A DNA stretch of 64,000 bases from Sphingomonas sp. (GCF_035944535.1 NZ_DASZBC010000002.1:34638-98637), one strand, 5' to 3'. Shown: positions 49,919 through 59,782, counted from the first letter of the stretch. A program made the numbers and translations. The notes: a model not told the origin generated them from the sequence alone.

Positions 49919-50899
49919 CTACTCTGCCGCCCGCGCTAAGGCGAGGCCATCCCCCTGCGCGCCCGCCGGCAGGCGCCGCAGCACGCGCCCGCTGGCAAAG
50001 TCGATCTCCGCCACCTGATTGCGTCCCGTCTCCGCCGCATAGATGCGCCGGCCATCACCCGAGAACAGGATCGTCACCTGCGCCGCCGCCTCCTGGCCGC
50101 TAACGGCTATGGTGCGGACAGGCTTGCGGCTGGCGCCGTCGATCACGGTCAGCGTGCCGTCCAGGAAGTTCGATGTGACGACAAAGCGCCCGTCCGGACT
50201 GAAGGCGACGCGGATCGGCCTTTTGCCCGTCGGCACCAGCGCCAGCGGCTTTGCGCTGCCGGTTTCGATCGCGCTGGTGCTGAACGCCTGCACCCGTGCG
50301 CCCTCCAGATCGGCGACCCACAAGGTCCTGCCATCGGGCGACACGGCAATGCCTTCGGGCCGTCCGCCGACCGCCAGGTCGCGCAGCTTCCGGCGCCCTT
50401 CCAGGTCGACGATCGTGACCGTGCCGGCCGGGATGTTGGCGGTATAGGCGCGGCGCAGGTCCGGCGAGACCGCCACCATATGGGTGCCTGCCTGGCCCGT
50501 CGGAATGGAAAGTACCGCATCGCCCGCACGCGGCTCGATCAGGGTGAGCGACAGGCTGCGCTCGGTCGTCGCCAGCAGCCGCCCGTCGCGCAGCCAGACG
50601 AGGCCATGCGGCCCCTCGTTCGGAGAAAGGTCGAGCGTCCGCAGCTTGCTCCGGCGGGCAACGTCGAAAAGATCGATGCTGCGCCCGCCATAAGCGACCA
50701 CCGCCGCCTGGCGTCCGTCGGGCGAAATGGCGATCTCGTGCGGCATCCGCCCGGTCGCCACCCGACCCAGCTCCTTCGCCGTGGCAAGATCGACGAAGCT
50801 CAGCGTGTCCTCGACCTTGTTGCCGACCAGCAGCAGGTCTGCGCTCAGGGCTGGTGCGGGAAGAGCGGCCAGGAGCAGCGGAAACAGCGCAGATCTCAT
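49919..50899 (-). CDS. YncE-like beta-propeller repeat protein, secreted
   Basis: 326 aa. Signal peptide, then repeated ..P.GIA.SPDG..... blades. Confidence 0.75.
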   Translation of the reverse strand: MRSALFPLLLAALPAPALSADLLLVGNKVEDTLSFVDLATAKELGRVATGRMPHEIAISPDGRQAAVVAYGGRSIDLFDVARRSKLRTLDLSPNEGPHGLVWLRDGRLLATTERSLSLTLIEPRAGDAVLSIPTGQAGTHMVAVSPDLRRAYTANIPAGTVTIVDLEGRRKLRDLAVGGRPEGIAVSPDGRTLWVADLEGARVQAFSTSAIETGSAKPLALVPTGKRPIRVAFSPDGRFVVTSNFLDGTLTVIDGASRKPVRTIAVSGQEAAAQVTILFSGDGRRIYAAETGRNQVAEIDFASGRVLRRLPAGAQGDGLALARAAE

Positions 50900-50923
50900 G
50901 TCAAATCCTCTGATTTTAGCTTC

Positions 50924-51007
50924 TCGTCATTGCGAGGAGTGCAACGACGAAGCAATCCACAGTTCCGGACTTCTGGATTGCTTCGCTTCACTCGCAATGA
51001 CGATCGC
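50924..51007. repeat. palindromic REP/MITE-like element, family A
   Basis: ctcgtcattgcgaggagtgcaacgacgaagcaatccac ... ctggattgcttcgcttcactcgcaatgacga. Confidence 0.85.
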
Positions 51008-51083
51008 GGGATGTCCGTCGCCCCGAACCGCTTGTTGGTCGCGCCCGTATCGACAGCGATGCAAGCACTGCTAAGGCGCGCAA

Positions 51084-51662
51084 GTGAATCCGTGGGAAGT
51101 GCTGGCCGCGTCGCTCGGCGTCATCAACATCGTCCTGATCGTGCGGCGGAGCGTATGGAACTACCCCTTTGGCATCGCGATGGTGAGCATCTCTGCCTGG
51201 CTGTTCGTGCAGCCGGACGTGCGGCTGTACAGCGACGCCTTGCTTCAGCTCTTCTTCTTCGTCGTCCAGCTTTACGGCTGGTGGAGCTGGTCGAAGGCGC
51301 AGGCGACGCAAGGGGAGATCGCGGTCGAGCGGCTGCCTCGAAGCGCATGGGCTGCGTGTCTTGCGGCGATTACGGTAACGACCTTGGGCTGGGGCGCCCT
51401 TATGTACCGCTTCACTGATGCTTCGCTGCCTTGGTGGGATGCGTTCATCGCCATGGCGAGCGTTGCGGCGCAGCTGCTGATGGCGCGGCGCTATCTCGAA
51501 AACTGGTTATTGTGGATCGTCGTCGATGTCGTCGCGATCGGCGTATATGCTGCTAAGGGTCTGACGTTGCTTGCCTTGCTTTACCTATTGTTCCTGATCC
51601 TGTCCGCTGTGGGGTTCGTCAGCTGGCGCCGCGCGCAATCCGATCGGACGGCGACGACGTGA
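51084..51662 (+). CDS. pnuC: nicotinamide riboside transporter PnuC
   Basis: 192 aa, GTG start. PnuC-like TM pattern (..WNYPFGI.., ..WW.W..). Confidence 0.85.
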   Translation: MNPWEVLAASLGVINIVLIVRRSVWNYPFGIAMVSISAWLFVQPDVRLYSDALLQLFFFVVQLYGWWSWSKAQATQGEIAVERLPRSAWAACLAAITVTTLGWGALMYRFTDASLPWWDAFIAMASVAAQLLMARRYLENWLLWIVVDVVAIGVYAAKGLTLLALLYLLFLILSAVGFVSWRRAQSDRTATT

Positions 51663-52198
51663 CCGCCACCATCTGCCTGCACGGCCCGGAAAGCACCGGC
51701 AAGTCGACGCTCGGCCCCCGCCTCGCCGAAGCGCTGGGCGGCATCTATGTGGAGGAGTTCGGCCGCACCTGGTCCGAAGCCAAGGGCCTGGGCTTCACCA
51801 TGACCGATCTGGTCGCGATCGCCAAAGGCCATATGGCGGCGGCCCGCGACGCGCTGAACCGGCGCCCGCCCTATGTCATCCTCGACACCGATCCGCTGAT
51901 GACTGCTGTGTGGGCCGACATGCTGTTCGGGACACGCGATCCCTGGTTCGATCGCTTCAAGGACACGGCCGACTTCTACCTGATGTACGACATAGATCTG
52001 CCCTGGGTGCCGGACGGCACCCGCATGTTCGGCACCGACGAGCTGCGCACCCGCTTCTTCGAGCTGTCGAAAGCAGAGCTGGAGCGGCGGAACCTGCCTT
52101 GGGCGATGATCAAGGGCGCGGGCGAAGAGCGCTTCGCCAACACGATGAAGGCGATCGAGAACGCGATGCGCGCCGGCTACCTCGCCGAAGCCGCCTAG
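51659..52198 (+). CDS. AAA family ATPase, NadR C-terminal-like ribosylnicotinamide kinase
   Basis: 179 aa. P-loop GPESTGKST. Start overlaps the pnuC stop. Confidence 0.78.
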   Translation: MTATICLHGPESTGKSTLGPRLAEALGGIYVEEFGRTWSEAKGLGFTMTDLVAIAKGHMAAARDALNRRPPYVILDTDPLMTAVWADMLFGTRDPWFDRFKDTADFYLMYDIDLPWVPDGTRMFGTDELRTRFFELSKAELERRNLPWAMIKGAGEERFANTMKAIENAMRAGYLAEAA

Positions 52199-54070: not shown

Positions 54071-55882
54071 ATGGCAACCGAACTTTCCAAGATCCGCAAT
54101 TTCTCCATCATCGCGCATATCGATCATGGCAAGTCGACGCTCGCCGACCGGCTGATCCAGCGCACCGGCGGCCTCACCGACCGCGAAATGTCCTCCCAGG
54201 TCCTCGACAATATGGACATCGAGAAGGAGCGCGGCATCACCATCAAAGCGCAGACCGTGCGGCTGGAATGGAATGGCTACACCCTCAATCTGATGGACAC
54301 GCCGGGCCATGTCGACTTCGCCTATGAAGTCAGCCGCAGCCTCGCCGCCTGCGAAGGCGCGCTGCTCGTGGTCGACGCGGCGCAGGGTGTCGAGGCGCAG
54401 ACGCTCGCCAATGTCTATCAGTCGATCGAGCACGACCATGAAATCGTGCCTGTCATCAACAAGATCGACCTGCCCGCCGCCGAACCCGAAAAGGTGCGCG
54501 CCGAGATCGAGGAAGTGATCGGCCTCGACGCCTCCGAAGCGGTGCTCGCCTCCGCCAAATCCGGCATCGGCATCGACGAAGTGCTCGACGCGATCGTCAG
54601 GAAGATCCCGCCCCCCAAGGGCGATGCCGACGCGCCCTTGAAGGCGATGCTCGTCGACAGCTGGTACGATCCCTATCTCGGCGTCGTCATCCTGATCCGC
54701 GTCATCGACGGCGTCGTCAGGAAGGGCCAGCAGATCAAGTTCATGCAGGCCGGCACCACCCACCTGATCGACCGCGCCGGCGTGTTCCGCCCCAAGATCG
54801 AGAACCTGCCCGAGCTCGGCCCCGGCGAGGTCGGCTTCATCACTGCCCAGATCAAGGACGTGGCGCAGGCGCGCGTCGGCGACACGCTGACCGACGCCCG
54901 CCGCCCCACGGCGCAAGCGCTGCCAGGCTTTAAGGAAGTGCAGCCGGTCGTCTTCTGCGGCCTCTTCCCCACCGACGCCAACGACTTCGAGAAGCTCAGG
55001 GAAAGCATCTCCAAGCTCCGCCTCAACGATGCGAGCTTCAGCTTCGAGATGGAGACCAGCGCCGCATTGGGCTTCGGCTTCCGCTGCGGCTTCCTCGGCC
55101 TCCTGCACCTGGAGATCATCCAGGAGCGGCTGACCCGCGAATATGATCTCGACCTGATCACCACCGCGCCCAGCGTCGTCTATCGACTGCAGCTGACCCG
55201 CGCCGCCGGTGAGGCCGAGGCGCAGACGATCGAGCAACACAACCCCGCCGACATGCCCGATCCCAATCGGATCGACATGATCGAGGAGCCTTGGATCGAG
55301 GCGACCATCTATGTGCCCGACGAATATCTAGGCGCCATCCTGAAGCTCTGCCAGGATCGCCGCGGCATCCAGAAGAACCTGACCTATGTCGGCGGCCGCG
55401 CCCAGCTCACCTACGAGCTGCCGCTCAATGAAGTTGTGTTCGACTTCTACGACCGGCTGAAAAGCATCAGCCGCGGCTACGCCAGCTTCGACTATCACCA
55501 GATCGGCTATCGCGAGGGCGACCTCGTCAAGATGAGCATCCTGGTCAACAACGAGCCGGTCGACGCATTGAGCATGATCGTCCATCGCGGCACGGCCGAG
55601 ACGCGCGGCCGCGGCATGTGCGAACGCCTGAAGGACCTGATCCCCCGCCACCTCTTCAAGATCCCGATCCAGGCCGCGATCGGCGGCAAGGTGATCGCGA
55701 GAGAGACCATCGCCGCGCTGCGCAAGGACGTGACGGCGAAATGCTATGGCGGCGATATCTCGCGGAAACGCAAGCTGCTCGACAAGCAGAAAGAGGGCAA
55801 GAAGAAGATGCGGGAGTACGGCAGCGTCTCCATCCCTCAAGAGGCGTTCATCGCCGCGCTCCGCATGGGCGACGAAGGCTAG
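54071..55882 (+). CDS. lepA: translation elongation factor 4
   Basis: 603 aa. GTPase motifs [21 protein letters not shown]. LepA C-terminal domain. Confidence 0.98.
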
Positions 55883-56139
55883 CTGCTGGACAGGCAGGAA
55901 ATGGGCAGGAACCCTCGATACCGGGGATCGAGGAAGCCCTAGTTCTGGCACGAAGACGATGCGGAACGCGCAGCGACCGTTAGCGCGGTGCGCTAGCGCA
56001 GGTGGATGGCTTCTGAGGTTGAGAAGGGGGCTTGCGTAGCAATCGCCGATTTAGACGAGACACCGCGACATCACTGGCCGGCGCGCGAAACTCGGAAAAC
56101 TAGGGGAGGCGATAGACTAATGCAGCCACAACCTGAGTT

Positions 56140-57075
56140 CTATAGCCTAGCTGCACGATCGCATTTTGCCAAGAACGCAGCAAAGCCTTCGGGTAGCGGT
56201 GAGCGAGACGCGAGCGAGCCGAGACTCATCTCATCGTGCTTCAGCTTGGCATCCTGACCGATCGGTGGAGGGAAGAGGCCATGGCGAGCATTCCTATATT
56301 CATCACAGAGTCGGTCGAGCCATCCTCGGAAAAACTTGTACGCGAACTTACCTCGATAGCGCTCGCCAGGATCAAGCTGCTTAAACTCTTCTTCAAGCTG
56401 CTGAGTAGCCTCTCCCAAAATCGGGAGAGCTATCGCCTCCTCCGCCGGAGGATTACACGGCTGCACATGTCCTAATTCGACCGCAGCTAACTTTGCCAAG
56501 GAGGTAGGAATGTAGTTGTCGATCTCGACACGGACGCGCCGAGCGAAGAATATCCGCCGATTCAACTCCGAAGCTATTTGTAGGAAGTCCGCGTAGTCTG
56601 CTTCGAACAGCATGCAAACTTTTTCGCGCATAGCCCTATCCCCACTGCCCGGAAAGGCCACTTTGATCGTTTCGTCAAGAACCTGCCTGTCTACTAAGTA
56701 GTTCTCGATTGAATAGCGATCCAACATGAACACGAAATCGATGCTCTCAAATCCTTCTAATTCGTCAAAATCTCTATCAACTAGAAAGGCGACGCCTTCA
56801 TTTGCGTTTGAAAGATCTCTGGCTAGAACATTCCTGAGCTTCTTAACTTCACGCTTGCCTGAACAAACGAAAAACTCGTACGCTAGATCTGGAGCGACGC
56901 GCTGAATCCAGTAGGAGTAGGCGATTTTGTCGTCGTCGCCCTCGACTGCGAAGATCAGGCCGCTGGGATAGCGGGATCGAAAGTTGAGGAAGCTGATCTT
57001 GGCCACAGCCTGTCGATCACGTGCTGCAATCTGGCTAGCAACATAAGAGTCTTGACCGCTGCCTTCCTCAATCAT
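56140..57075 (-). CDS. DUF4435 / TOPRIM-like (OLD-family nuclease-like) protein, AriB/AbiLii-like
   Basis: Motifs FAVEGDDDKIAY, FLVDRDFDE, DRYSIENYL. ATG 57075 lies 8 nt inside the upstream ATPase gene; ATG 57090 is an alternative. Confidence 0.8.
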   Translation of the reverse strand: MIEEGSGQDSYVASQIAARDRQAVAKISFLNFRSRYPSGLIFAVEGDDDKIAYSYWIQRVAPDLAYEFFVCSGKREVKKLRNVLARDLSNANEGVAFLVDRDFDELEGFESIDFVFMLDRYSIENYLVDRQVLDETIKVAFPGSGDRAMREKVCMLFEADYADFLQIASELNRRIFFARRVRVEIDNYIPTSLAKLAAVELGHVQPCNPPAEEAIALPILGEATQQLEEEFKQLDPGERYRGKFAYKFFRGWLDRLCDEYRNARHGLFPPPIGQDAKLKHDEMSLGSLASRSPLPEGFAAFLAKCDRAARL

Positions 57076-58648
57076 CGGACACGTCACCATTCCCGGCTGA
57101 TGTCGGGAGCGCCAACTGCGGTTGGTTCGCGTCAGAGACTGATAAGTCGAGAGTCCGCGCAAAAGGTTCGAGAGAATTGTCAAACACAAAAGGCGAATGA
57201 GTGATTGCCACAACCTGCTCACAGTTTGGCGATAGAAGAACGTCAATCAATATACCGCGCTGCCAATCAATAGAGAGAGACAGCTCTGGCTCATCGATCA
57301 AAACAATCTTTTTCTTTGGATACAGATACATTCGAGCAAAAAGAGATATCATTTGCTTCTCGCCGGACGAGAGAGAGTCGAGCGAAATAGGCGTCTTCGC
57401 CGGTAGGCTCTCAACATTAACGCTCAGGTCTGTTGGGTTTAACTTAAGCTCCTTTGCGTCAATCTCTTGTAGATGCGTCCGGTTCGCTTCTGTACTAGGA
57501 AGCGTACTGGGTTCCGAAGATGACAAGTAACGATTGCAGCTCCTTATGAAATCCCCAACAGGCTGCTCGATCTCCTTTGTTATGTTAATTATTCCATTCA
57601 GCTTGTTTAGGAAGTAACGTAGGAACTTAGCCGATTCCGGGGGCACGCCTTCGCTACTATAGATTTTTGCAAAATCCGGAGCGCTAATCCTGGAATAATA
57701 AGGCCCCATCATTCTTGTTCCGGACTCCAGACGCGAGAAGAAGAGCTTTAGGTCGTCAGGCTGGGGTATCTCTGCGTCCTCTGAAACCTCGTATCCTCGG
57801 ATAAGTTCATCAATTATGTTCTCGCTAATCTCACGATATTCCCTATTTGATCGCGCAATAATCCTATCGTGAAGTTGAGATAGCCTTTCGGAGATATCGC
57901 CCAAGCCGAACTGTATTTCTGCAGTATGCAGTCCACTGGCGGATATATTAAGCTTCGGCTTAGATCGTCCTAGGCGACGACGTTCCTCTCTATTGTCGGT
58001 GAGTGCAAGTTCGACGCGCCGGTAAGTCGGCAGATAAACTATCTCGAAGTCTGAAAGAGCCTCAGCTAATGTGGTCCTTAATCGATCAAGAGGAGGGCTT
58101 TTTCTGAAAAGCGAGTTGTAAGCATCCGCGCATGCTTTTCTAACTGCCCTGCTGTCATGCCCGAACGCTCTATACAACGCATTCGTTATGCTGTGCTGAT
58201 CATGATCGTTAGCCCAGTTGTCTAGATAGGGCTCATAGTCTGAGAATAGAAACGCTAGGAGCTTATCGGTTCCAACTTGAGACCTACTTGCGAGACGCCC
58301 AATCTCGCCTTCAGACGAGCCTTGGAGAAAGGTAAGGAGATCATCGTGCGTTAGAACCAGTTCTTCCGGAACGCCCCTCAGTCGGCAATATATCTCTGCA
58401 AAGTCGAGGTCTCGAAGCCTATAGAGCTGCAGCTTCAAGAAGGCGTCTAATGCGCTGAGGAGGGTGGTCTTGCCAGTGCCATTCCTCGCTATCAGGATTG
58501 TAGCCGCGTGTTTCGAAGACAAGGATATATCGCGAAAGCCGTAGAGTCCCCTGATCCCGAACCGTTCTATCAAGGCGGGACGCGCTCCAGCCAACGCGGC
58601 GCGCTCCTGTGCGTCCGGAGTCGCAAGCACCTCTGTAACTTCGGACAT
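57068..58648 (-). CDS. ABC/SMC-type AAA ATPase, AriA/AbiLi-like
   Basis: 526 aa. Walker A ARNGTGKTT, YLPTYRR, signature LSSGEKQ, Walker B KKIVLIDEPELSLS, H-loop AITHSP. AGGAGGG RBS upstream of ATG 58648. Confidence 0.85.
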   Translation of the reverse strand: MSEVTEVLATPDAQERAALAGARPALIERFGIRGLYGFRDISLSSKHAATILIARNGTGKTTLLSALDAFLKLQLYRLRDLDFAEIYCRLRGVPEELVLTHDDLLTFLQGSSEGEIGRLASRSQVGTDKLLAFLFSDYEPYLDNWANDHDQHSITNALYRAFGHDSRAVRKACADAYNSLFRKSPPLDRLRTTLAEALSDFEIVYLPTYRRVELALTDNREERRRLGRSKPKLNISASGLHTAEIQFGLGDISERLSQLHDRIIARSNREYREISENIIDELIRGYEVSEDAEIPQPDDLKLFFSRLESGTRMMGPYYSRISAPDFAKIYSSEGVPPESAKFLRYFLNKLNGIINITKEIEQPVGDFIRSCNRYLSSSEPSTLPSTEANRTHLQEIDAKELKLNPTDLSVNVESLPAKTPISLDSLSSGEKQMISLFARMYLYPKKKIVLIDEPELSLSIDWQRGILIDVLLSPNCEQVVAITHSPFVFDNSLEPFARTLDLSVSDANQPQLALPTSAGNGDVSDD

Positions 58649-58854
58649 CGAGCCCCCTCCTGAAGCAGAAACCTATTGAGTGATGACGTTTTAGCAAGGG
58701 TGGACATCAGGCGGTTCGCGGCGCAGACGGGGAGAGGCTTTGGAATGAGCCTACTTACCCCATCACCTTCGGCATCTTCATCCATCGCTCGGACTCGATC
58801 TACGACGACAGCCCGGCTGAGCGGTACCAGTTTTCGCCGCAGTATCTCGGGCGC

Positions 58855-59655
58855 GTGCAGGCCTGTGTTGGTGACTGGATCATCTATTATGAGCCGGTGA
58901 AGGTGCCGGGCACGCGCGGTTATTTCGCTGTCGCGAAGGTGCAGCAGGTCATTCTCGATCCGGGCACGCCCGGCATGTATCTCGCGATTATCGAAGCCGG
59001 CAGCTATCTCGACATCGCCAATCCTGTGCCGTTCAACAGCCCCGATGGGCTGGTCGAGCGCGGGCTTTTGAACGAGGCGGGCGCGATCTCCGGCCGCGCG
59101 CAGTCGGCCGTACGGCCGATCTCGCCGGGCGACTTCTACCGGATCGTGACGCTGGGGCTGGCCGAGCATGACGATCTGCTGCCGCGCATCGGTGAAGCGG
59201 CGCCGGGCTCGGCCGTGCGCGAGGAGCCTGCGCCTTTTCTGTATGAGCAGGAGCGGATCACGGCGCTGACTTCGCGGATCGTCCGCGACCGCGTGTTCCG
59301 CCGCATTGTCGTCAAAGCCTATGATGCGCGCTGCGCGATCACCGGCTTGAAGCTGATAAACGGCGGTGGGCGGGCCGAGGTGGAAGCGGCGCATATCCGT
59401 CCGGTGGGTGCGGACGGGCCGGATACGGTGCAGAACGGGCTTGCGCTGTCCGGCACGGTGCACTGGATGTTCGATCGCGGGCTGATCAGCCTTTCGGATG
59501 AGCTCGACATCCTGGTGTCGCGGCAGGTGAATGATCCGGACAGCGTGTGGAGCCTGGTCAACAAGGCGCGGAAGGCGCTGGCGCCGGCGCGCGCGATGGA
59601 TCGGCCGCACCCGCATTTTCTCGGCTGGCATCGGGAGCATTGCTTCAAGCACTGA
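58855..59655 (+). CDS. HNH endonuclease with N-terminal putative DNA-recognition domain (candidate type IV restriction-like enzyme); 5' end apparently frameshifted
   Basis: HNH core CAITGL..EAAHIRP..NGLALSGTVHWMFDRGLISL. The first canonical in-frame start is GTG 58855, but the protein-like frame continues upstream to 58687. ATG 58745 is in another frame (see finding). Confidence 0.75.
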   Translation: MQACVGDWIIYYEPVKVPGTRGYFAVAKVQQVILDPGTPGMYLAIIEAGSYLDIANPVPFNSPDGLVERGLLNEAGAISGRAQSAVRPISPGDFYRIVTLGLAEHDDLLPRIGEAAPGSAVREEPAPFLYEQERITALTSRIVRDRVFRRIVVKAYDARCAITGLKLINGGGRAEVEAAHIRPVGADGPDTVQNGLALSGTVHWMFDRGLISLSDELDILVSRQVNDPDSVWSLVNKARKALAPARAMDRPHPHFLGWHREHCFKH

Positions 59656-59670
59656 GGCCACCAACTCCCC

Positions 59671-59782
59671 CGTTATCGTGAACTTGTTTCAGGACAAGGC
59701 GTCCGCTCGCTTCCAAGCTGGGGAGCGCAACTTCAAACAACGCGCTGCTCAACCCTTGTCCCGAAACGAGTTCGGGATGACG
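59671..59782. repeat. palindromic REP/MITE-like element, family B
   Basis: cgttatcgtgaacttgtttcagga ... gtcccgaaacgagttcgggatgacga. Confidence 0.8.

Follow-up and report, generated by a model that had tools for sequence, protein, structure and literature searches.

The DNA analyzed here is a stretch of 64,000 nucleotides (nt) from Sphingomonas sp. (GCF_035944535.1 NZ_DASZBC010000002.1:34638-98637), referred to as the window. Just past lepA it carries a short AT-rich segment with two minus strand genes, which encode an ABC/SMC-type ATPase and a DUF4435/TOPRIM nuclease. They are called ariA-like and ariB-like here, after the AriA and AriB proteins of the PARIS defence system. An earlier reading of the window by a model working from the sequence alone, the original prediction, had placed open reading frames (ORFs) of 526 and 311 amino acids (aa) on the minus strand at 57068-58648 and 56140-57075, and both are present exactly as described. 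The acquired segment is 55883-58761 (2879 nt). These limits were chosen because homology to related genomes stops at the lepA stop codon and resumes at the start of an HNH endonuclease gene. The features of the locus, with positions counted from the first letter of the window, are as follows.

54071..55882, plus strand, lepA (elongation factor 4, 603 aa), conserved left anchor of the variable slot, LepA 94-98% identical in close Sphingomonas relatives
55883..56139, 257 nt, non-coding spacer between the convergent genes lepA and ariB-like, within the variable segment
56140..57075, minus strand, ariB-like gene, DUF4435/TOPRIM nuclease of 311 aa, predicted effector
57068..57075, 8 nt, minus strand, overlap of the ariA-like stop (57068-57070) and the ariB-like start (ATG, 57073-57075), ATGATTGA
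57068..58648, minus strand, ariA-like gene, ABC/SMC-type ATPase of 526 aa, predicted sensor and scaffold
58649..58761, 113 nt, region from the 5' side of ariA-like to the HNH start position, with a Shine-Dalgarno sequence GGAGG at 58656-60 on the minus strand
58762..59655, plus strand, HNH_2 endonuclease gene (type IV-restriction-like), right anchor of the PARIS segment

The segment clearly differs from its flanks in base composition. Using a 400-nt sliding window, G+C is 0.62-0.72 in both flanks and drops to 0.455-0.53 at ~56.2-58.6 kb. In round figures, it goes from ~0.66 to 0.46-0.50 across ~56.0-58.6 kb. The ten lowest 2.5-kb intervals in the 64 kb all begin at 55.7-56.6 kb, and the minimum is 0.502 versus a 64-kb mean of 0.660 (standard deviation 0.035). 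G+C at third codon positions (GC3) is 0.554 in ariB-like and 0.516 in ariA-like, compared with 0.877 in lepA, 0.809 in the HNH gene, 0.865 in the RibD_C gene and 0.884 in the SDR gene. GC3 is nearly free of amino acid constraints, therefore this contrast is evidence independent of protein composition. Windowed G+C and per-gene GC3 thus bear out the AT-rich stretch after lepA and the lost third position bias that had been described. The 257-nt spacer has a G+C of 0.60 and is not homologous to the DNA that follows lepA in any relative compared; it shows no unusual folding (z = -0.84) and no Rfam match. The 113-nt region at the other end also has no homology to the relatives compared. A milder dip in G+C (0.595-0.64) with strongly negative AT skew was seen at 50600-51800, ~5 kb upstream of lepA, inside a block that aligns with the closest relative (L087).

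The ariA-like protein was identified by the Pfam models AAA_21 (58.7 bits with a cut-off of 27, E 1.3e-15) and AAA_15 (52.4 bits with a cut-off of 32.1, E 8.5e-14). Its top PADLOC model is AriA (3.9e-24), and the PtuA and MADS3 ATPase models also match the C-terminus. All of the ATPase motifs listed in the original prediction were found. These are Walker A (GTGKTT, residues 57-62), YLPTYRR (205-211), the ABC signature LSSGEKQ (426-432), Walker B (VLIDEPE, 449-455, with the catalytic E in LIDEPE, 450-455) and the H-loop THSP (483-486, with H484). Walker A, the signature, Walker B and the H-loop are invariant in 35 ariA-like sequences, which amounts to a complete ABC ATPase site. The closest relative is 76% identical, and the lengths of both the ariA-like and the ariB-like proteins are the norm for the family.

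A sequence search of the PDB with the ariA-like protein recovered AriA (8v45/8ux9) at 4.6e-9 over 66 residues, 424-489, which comprise the signature, Walker B and H-loop region. The AlphaFold model of the protein has a predicted local distance difference test (pLDDT) score of 76.5, weaker than that of the ariB-like model. When this model was compared with the PDB using Foldseek, ranks 1-15 were all AriA or PARIS-complex chains (best E 1.9e-12, probability 1.0), with template modeling (TM) scores of 0.57-0.65 on the target. The next matches were retron/Septu PtuA (~1e-8) and Rad50/SMC (~1e-5). A predicted disordered loop at residues 210-237 contains a basic patch, RRRxGRxxPK, whose character is conserved across the family. 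AriA has disordered loops with a positive charge around the pores that contact the acidic anti-restriction protein Ocr (PMC11464382), and by analogy the basic loop is a suggestive parallel to them.

One proposal about this gene failed. The first ~30 codons had been described as host-like in G+C, hinting at a recombination junction inside the ATPase gene. GC3 of these codons is only 0.63 versus ~0.87 in host genes, and their higher total G+C is due to Ala/Arg/Gly/Pro codons. Residues 1-30 align with the nearest homologues (MSEVTEVLATPDAQERAALAGARPALIERFGIRGLYG versus MSETEAALASIDLQTRAAAAGARPALIERFGIRGLYG). A junction within the gene is not supported, and the N-terminus is native to the family.

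The ariB-like protein contains DUF4435 (62.0 bits with a cut-off of 27, E 9.1e-17). Its top PADLOC model is AriB (6.1e-19), and it otherwise matches only the fused AriAB model. The acidic motifs expected in the nuclease, FAVEGDDDK, LVDRDFD and DRYSIENYL, are present and their key residues do not vary in the family; E45, G46, D49, D100, R101, D102, E124 and the R241-G-K243 motif are invariant in 41 ariB-like sequences. The TOPRIM acidic residues of E. coli AriB are E26, D30, D88, E90 and E122 (PMC11464382). The acidic set of the ariB-like protein mirrors these by motif pattern and full-length structural match, rather than by residue-level superposition. The closest relative is 63% identical.

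The AlphaFold2 model of the ariB-like protein has a pLDDT of 93.6. Foldseek matched it to 8v46_D (E 1.2e-7) and 8ux9_A (E 2.6e-7), both with a probability of 1.0 and a full-length alignment. These AriB chains of two PARIS cryo-electron microscopy entries are the only PDB matches at E <= 0.001. The next structural matches, at E 0.04, are OLD C-terminal TOPRIM domains.

The ATG at 57075 is backed as the ariB-like start by the N-termini of 40 homologues, while a longer ORF that starts with TTG and extends to 57246 is not. The 8-nt overlap with ariA-like that had been noted can be read directly, and an overlap of 4-8 nt recurs in three other genomes (L003, L004 and L006). The overlap suggests translational coupling. 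Judged by their sequences, both proteins look functional.

The lepA-downstream locus was then compared with that of eight Sphingomonas relatives, six obtained via LepA (95-98% identical) and two via the HNH gene (LepA 85-86%). The ariA-like/ariB-like pair is absent from the locus in 8/8 relatives. The left anchor is lepA in 8/8, and the right anchors are HNH, RibD_C or 114-aa/SDR genes. In every comparison (L087, L088, L090, L007 and L008) nucleotide homology to the window breaks off at 55875-55880, where lepA has its stop codon. It picks up again precisely at the HNH start codon in L007, L008, L087 and L091, and at RibD_C in L090; in L087 and L088 it also returns at the 114-aa/SDR genes. Of the HNH gene, L088 has no more than the final ~180 nt (L088:13549-13730), along with the start of RibD_C. 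Given this remnant, the HNH-RibD_C arrangement is older than the present cargo, and turnover of the slot includes deletions.

We put at roughly 0.8 the probability that 55883-58761 is a horizontally acquired cassette with one intact two-gene operon of the PARIS family, for which a likely mechanism and exchange route can be inferred. The PARIS family is placed as class 4 of the OLD-like ABC-ATPase plus TOPRIM defence systems. By the working definition, an AAA_15/21 ATPase with a DUF4435 protein, and by fold the pair is a PARIS system. The two genes are adjacent and co-oriented, with the ATPase gene first and the DUF4435 gene second, and the Pfam scores are above the gathering cut-offs. Profile searches with Pfam and PADLOC were significant for AAA_21, AAA_15, DUF4435, AriA and AriB, and the solved AriA and AriB rank first in the PDB for the two predicted structures. 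The original prediction, an acquired PARIS-type module of two genes (ABC-ATPase plus DUF4435/TOPRIM) lacking recognisable mobility genes, is supported by the Pfam, PADLOC and PDB matches together with the absence of the pair from eight relatives.

The PARIS system of the E. coli B185 P4-like satellite (8UX9, 8V45-8V49) has the same arrangement, an ATPase gene followed by an overlapping DUF4435/TOPRIM gene. It has the same Pfam domains (AAA_15/AAA_21 plus DUF4435) and is the top structural match for both window proteins. The acidic TOPRIM residues and the ABC motifs are common to the two systems, and the basic loop of the ATPase recalls the charged pore loops of E. coli PARIS. They differ in sequence (12-16% identity), and the window ATPase is ~60 aa longer than the 464-aa PDB chain. 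They also differ in setting. E. coli PARIS is found in a phage satellite, whereas the window pair is in a chromosomal slot of an alphaproteobacterium.

Several points weigh against our interpretation. Identity to the characterised E. coli AriA and AriB is no higher than the 12-16% just given, and sequence likeness to AriA is confined to the 66 residues 424-489. The TM score of the ariA-like model is 0.46-0.48 on the query, and the global TM score of the ariB-like model with AriB is only 0.41. These modest values point to a differing domain arrangement or to insertions. No PDB AriB chain was found by sequence, using either the single ariB-like query or the 41-sequence profile. Three of the matching PADLOC models have the lengths of Pfam models, thus the AriA and AriB matches are probably not independent evidence. 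A promoter scan found no sigma-70-like site in 58649..58761 and no promoter was identified; the promoter and terminator scan found nothing in the expected places. None of the eight relatives has an empty site, as all carry cargo, and no donor was found. The deletions at the slot show that clean recombination through the flanks is not the sole process there. Finally, specificity may well differ from that of the E. coli system.

Failure to find AriB by sequence is not peculiar to the ariB-like protein, since the DUF4435 protein of a PARIS-type pair from an E. coli P2-like phage likewise has no PDB AriB match by sequence. For the same reason a sequence search for PDB AriB cannot discriminate PARIS clades. 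The phage protein aligns with the ariB-like family at EGxDD, DxDF and SIEN in hhalign, a weak motif-level alignment (E 0.019). Eleven divergent AriA/AriB clades have been found with the same kind of models (Burman et al.).

The alternative that survives best, though we think it unlikely, is that the genes form an ABC-ATPase plus TOPRIM system of the wider OLD-like group that acts unlike PARIS. It might cut DNA of the phage or the host, like P2 Old and Gabija, or work in the manner of the uncharacterised AbiL. OLD C-terminal TOPRIM domains are indeed the next structural matches of the nuclease, but AriB beats OLD by 5 orders of magnitude (1e-7 versus 4e-2), and the AriB alignment spans the whole protein, with the C-terminal half outside TOPRIM included. 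The very low identity to AriA and AriB, the lack of a sequence-level AriB match, and the PtuA and MADS3 ATPase models that match the ATPase C-terminus also favor such a system. Against these stand the absence of GajA and AbiL models among the best matches, a nuclease that is a separate DUF4435 protein with no fused TOPRIM_OLD domain, and two overlapping genes, which is the PARIS architecture. P2 Old, Gabija GajA and retron/Septu PtuA have an AAA_15/21-family ABC ATPase in common with the window pair. Old and GajA carry nuclease and ATPase on one polypeptide, and the nuclease of Septu and retrons is an HNH protein, whereas the window nuclease is a separate DUF4435 protein. TOPRIM_OLD gave no Pfam hit in the window proteins, so there is no fused OLD/Gabija enzyme. 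Matches to OLD and PtuA fall short of the AriA and AriB matches by 4-5 orders of magnitude.

AbiL deserves separate mention, as the original prediction had left the choice between PARIS and AbiL open. The lactococcal system (AbiLi/AbiLii) is likewise a two-gene ABC-ATPase plus TOPRIM-like abortive infection system, and was grouped with PARIS in a tree of AAA_15/21 proteins (PMC11464382). The evidence points towards PARIS. The DUF4435 protein matches no AbiL PADLOC model at E <= 0.01, and none is among the 25 best models of the ATPase; going by sequence, the pair is not AbiL. According to a review, AbiLii has no significant sequence similarity to AriB (PMC13064643). The pair is a real but fairly ordinary member of the PARIS family and the identification is sound.

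A mechanism can be outlined from E. coli PARIS (PMC11464382, PMC12409363). The E. coli proteins form an AriA6:AriB3 complex, from which AriB is freed when a phage trigger binds. Released AriB cleaves specific host tRNAs (Lys, Thr and Asn) and thereby aborts infection (PMC11464382, PMC12409363). Triggers in E. coli are anti-restriction proteins with a negative charge, Ocr among them (PMC11464382). By analogy, the 526-aa AriA-like ABC ATPase would form an oligomeric scaffold that would keep the 311-aa AriB-like TOPRIM nuclease inactive. A phage-made trigger, probably acidic, would bind the ATPase, and the conserved basic disordered loop 210-237 is a plausible site of contact. The nuclease would be set free, would then dimerise, and would cut host tRNA in the anticodon stem-loop, leading to a translation stop and aborted infection. 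The trigger and the target may differ in the clade to which the window pair belongs.

The cassette might instead be mainly a toxin-antitoxin-like addiction module that stabilises itself or the locus and provides no phage defence in this host. We consider this quite improbable. PARIS itself has been called a toxin-antitoxin-like abortive infection system (PMC13064643), but tested family members in E. coli and Lactococcus protect against phages (PMC11464382, PMC13064643). The toxin-antitoxin genes PaaA2, BrnT/BrnA and TacA occupy the slot or adjoin homologues of the pair, but in relatives the slot carries the recognised defence systems SIR2+HerA and PDC-S05. Both functions can coexist, which makes addiction more a nuance of the PARIS assignment than a true rival to it.

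A three-gene system, in which the pair works with the divergently transcribed HNH endonuclease gene, had also been raised and is very improbable. The HNH gene is adjacent to the pair and divergent from it, 113 nt apart, and a distant HNH_2 gene lies ~600 nt upstream of the L006 pair. That HNH_2 gene is only 25% identical, and the L003 and L004 pairs have no HNH_2 gene. The HNH family is highly conserved and alphaproteobacterial, with >569 genome hits at 67-79% identity. Leaving aside copies of the window locus, ariAB was found within 10 kb in 0/80 HNH loci taken from these hits. The gene was also present before the cassette, as it is found in L007, L008, L087 and L091 with other cargo. Furthermore, position 58762 in the window reads ATC where L007, L008, L087 and L091 have ATG or GTG, and the same base was found in two other assemblies. 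The first canonical in-frame start, GTG at 58855, would drop 31 conserved residues. The HNH copy of L087 (L087:12348-13236) has a 5-nt deletion that causes a frameshift, and L088 retains a remnant. These sequences suggest independent decay of the HNH gene in several closely related lineages. The lack of co-occurrence in 80 loci, the other neighbours at the three ariAB loci and ATC in place of a start codon all speak against co-operation, and a functional link was rejected on co-occurrence and the state of the gene. The HNH protein itself matches Pfam HNH_2 (1.5e-11) and NCBIfam PT-DNA_restrict (1.2e-29, under the cut-off of that model), and its PDB matches, 6yex and TagI, are confined to the HNH domain. 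A profile search of the PDB likewise matched that domain alone and gave no assignment for the N-terminal domain. At 59671-59782, in the spacer between HNH and RibD_C, there is an inverted repeat whose 29-nt arms are 83% complementary and 54 nt apart; the junction region around it is partly kept in L088.

That the segment is native and vertically inherited, with a low G+C from amino acid composition or chance, agrees with the lack of a flanking mobility gene, tRNA or repeat but is already refuted by the comparative data, given a GC3 of 0.52-0.55 versus 0.81-0.88, the lowest 2.5-kb G+C in 64 kb, absence of the pair from the locus in 8/8 relatives, and homologous pairs that form equally AT-rich islets in three other high-GC genomes.

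How the PARIS cassette entered the locus was approached by a search for mobility signals. The 64-kb window has no tRNA, 52-64 kb gave no Rfam match, none of the genes within ~10 kb has a mobility Pfam domain, and no flanking direct or inverted repeat is longer than expected by chance. This is absence of evidence only, and a distant element or one since lost may have been involved. These searches of the window and its neighbouring genes agree with the original prediction, which found no integrase, transposase, tRNA or flanking repeat. The only repeat that brackets both genes is a 14-nt inverted match, 86% complementary, at 56019-56032 and 58651-58664. It shares bases with the ribosome-binding site and is probably a chance match. 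No att-like (attachment site) sequence is shared after lepA among the six close relatives. We infer that the cassette most likely arrived, and is exchanged, by recombination through the conserved flanks, following DNA entry by transduction, conjugation or transformation; it is unlikely to have used its own site-specific integrase. Scar-free exchange via conserved flanks has been proposed for the core defence hotspots of Pseudomonas aeruginosa (PMC10250203). The HNH flank has 90% nucleotide identity to L087 versus 84% for the surrounding DNA, which is consistent with flank-mediated exchange and could equally reflect stronger constraint on the HNH gene.

The cargo found between the anchors in the eight relatives is listed below.

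L088 and L089: DUF2283, then SIR2+HerA (PADLOC 5.5e-181 and 1.3e-160)
L008: RhuM-family gene, the PADLOC candidate PDC-S05
L091: DUF2283, PaaA2, a 193-aa protein and a 440-aa HEPN_Toprim_N protein (the latter two at L091:11033-12903), then HNH
L090: an E1-like ThiF gene and a 172-aa gene (L090:9916-11336), and an HTH/ImmA pair
L092: PaaA2 and an 838-aa protein (L092:10299-12815) that matches no PADLOC model and has no recorded Pfam hit
L087: two unknowns and an HTH protein (L087:9812-11860), then HNH
L007: DUF4142, a split muramidase gene, an unknown, then HNH

The same flanks with different cargo, including recognised defence systems in relatives, make the slot a small defence hotspot flanked by core genes. 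Since SIR2+HerA, PARIS and PDC-S05 occupy the slot elsewhere, the uncharacterised occupants in L092, L091, L090 and L087 are candidate defence genes. The cDHS1/2 hotspots of P. aeruginosa and hotspots of E. coli likewise hold variable cargo between conserved genes, with lower G+C and no mobile-element scar, and carry different defence systems in relatives, as does the lepA slot. Compared with cDHS1/2, the lepA slot is much smaller (1.2-4 kb of cargo), occurs in Sphingomonas and has its left border exactly at the lepA stop. Its occupancy is described from eight relatives. A lepA-adjacent hotspot was not found described for Sphingomonas in the literature searched. It is an instance of a known phenomenon.

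Two minor features of the slot were noted in relatives. GC-rich palindromes resembling repetitive extragenic palindromic elements, for example CCCCGGATCAAGTCCGGGGTGACG, are present just past the lepA stop in L088 (L088:9810-9930) and L092 (L092:9812-9930), and the window is without them. The N-acetylmuramidase gene of L007 (L007:8351-9354) is divided over two overlapping ORFs, one matching the N-terminal and the other the C-terminal part of its Pfam model; the split is either a frameshift or an assembly error.

A bolder reading, to which we give somewhat less than an even chance, has two parts. The alphaproteobacterial clade of the pair (~140 clusters at E <= 1e-30, AT-rich in high-GC hosts) would be a functionally distinct PARIS variant with other triggers or other RNA targets than E. 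coli PARIS, and the slot at the lepA stop would be an undescribed defence hotspot of Sphingomonas. If the hotspot part is true, the 838-aa protein of L092 and the HEPN_Toprim_N protein of L091 with its 193-aa partner would be new defence genes.

The findings do not overturn current understanding. The PARIS assignment adds a divergent, intact PARIS-type system from a little-studied host group, and shows the family moving around as a two-gene cassette with nothing else attached. More useful is the comparative result, a compact slot past lepA with different defence systems in otherwise syntenic Sphingomonas. The slot is a cheap hunting ground for new defence genes, and a natural test case for the swapping of defence cassettes without mobile-element genes.

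Relatives of the DUF4435 protein number 633 at E <= 1e-3, 300 at E <= 1e-10 and 138 at E <= 1e-30 among 1.84 billion representatives. The order of the pair and the 4-8-nt overlap are kept in L003, L004 and L006, where the neighbours are unrelated. They include tyrosine integrases, a resolvase, AlpA, BrnT/BrnA and TacA toxin-antitoxin genes, and a MobA/TraD relaxase region. G+C of these pairs (L003:8001-10507, L004:8001-10482 and L006:8001-10506) is 0.43-0.51 versus 0.65-0.67 in their flanks. As the pairs are AT-rich in every high-GC host examined, low G+C is a property of the family and not only of the window insertion. The window cassette and the L003, L004 and L006 cassettes have no common non-coding ends. 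DNA similarity between cassettes stops within the coding regions, thus the ends of a mobile unit are not definable. Distant full-length relatives (26-28% identity) were found on plasmids of Paraburkholderia, Leptotrichia, Clostridium, Bacillus and Gloeocapsa.

Two other occurrences were recorded. The P2-like Escherichia phage vB_EcoM-813R9 (ON470620.1, L093:2005-4108) has an AAA_21/AAA_15 plus DUF4435 pair with an 8-nt overlap, flanked by gpV (baseplate) and gpS (tail). Its annotation goes no further than putative ATPase and hypothetical protein. The Paraburkholderia sabiae plasmid NZ_CP125297.1 (L094:3989-8264) has an AAA ATPase plus DUF4435 pair in the vicinity of a gene for a tyrosine recombinase. 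Directly after this pair comes a gene of 573 aa in which AAA_21 and DUF4435 are fused, thus split and merged PARIS-type genes adjoin on one plasmid.

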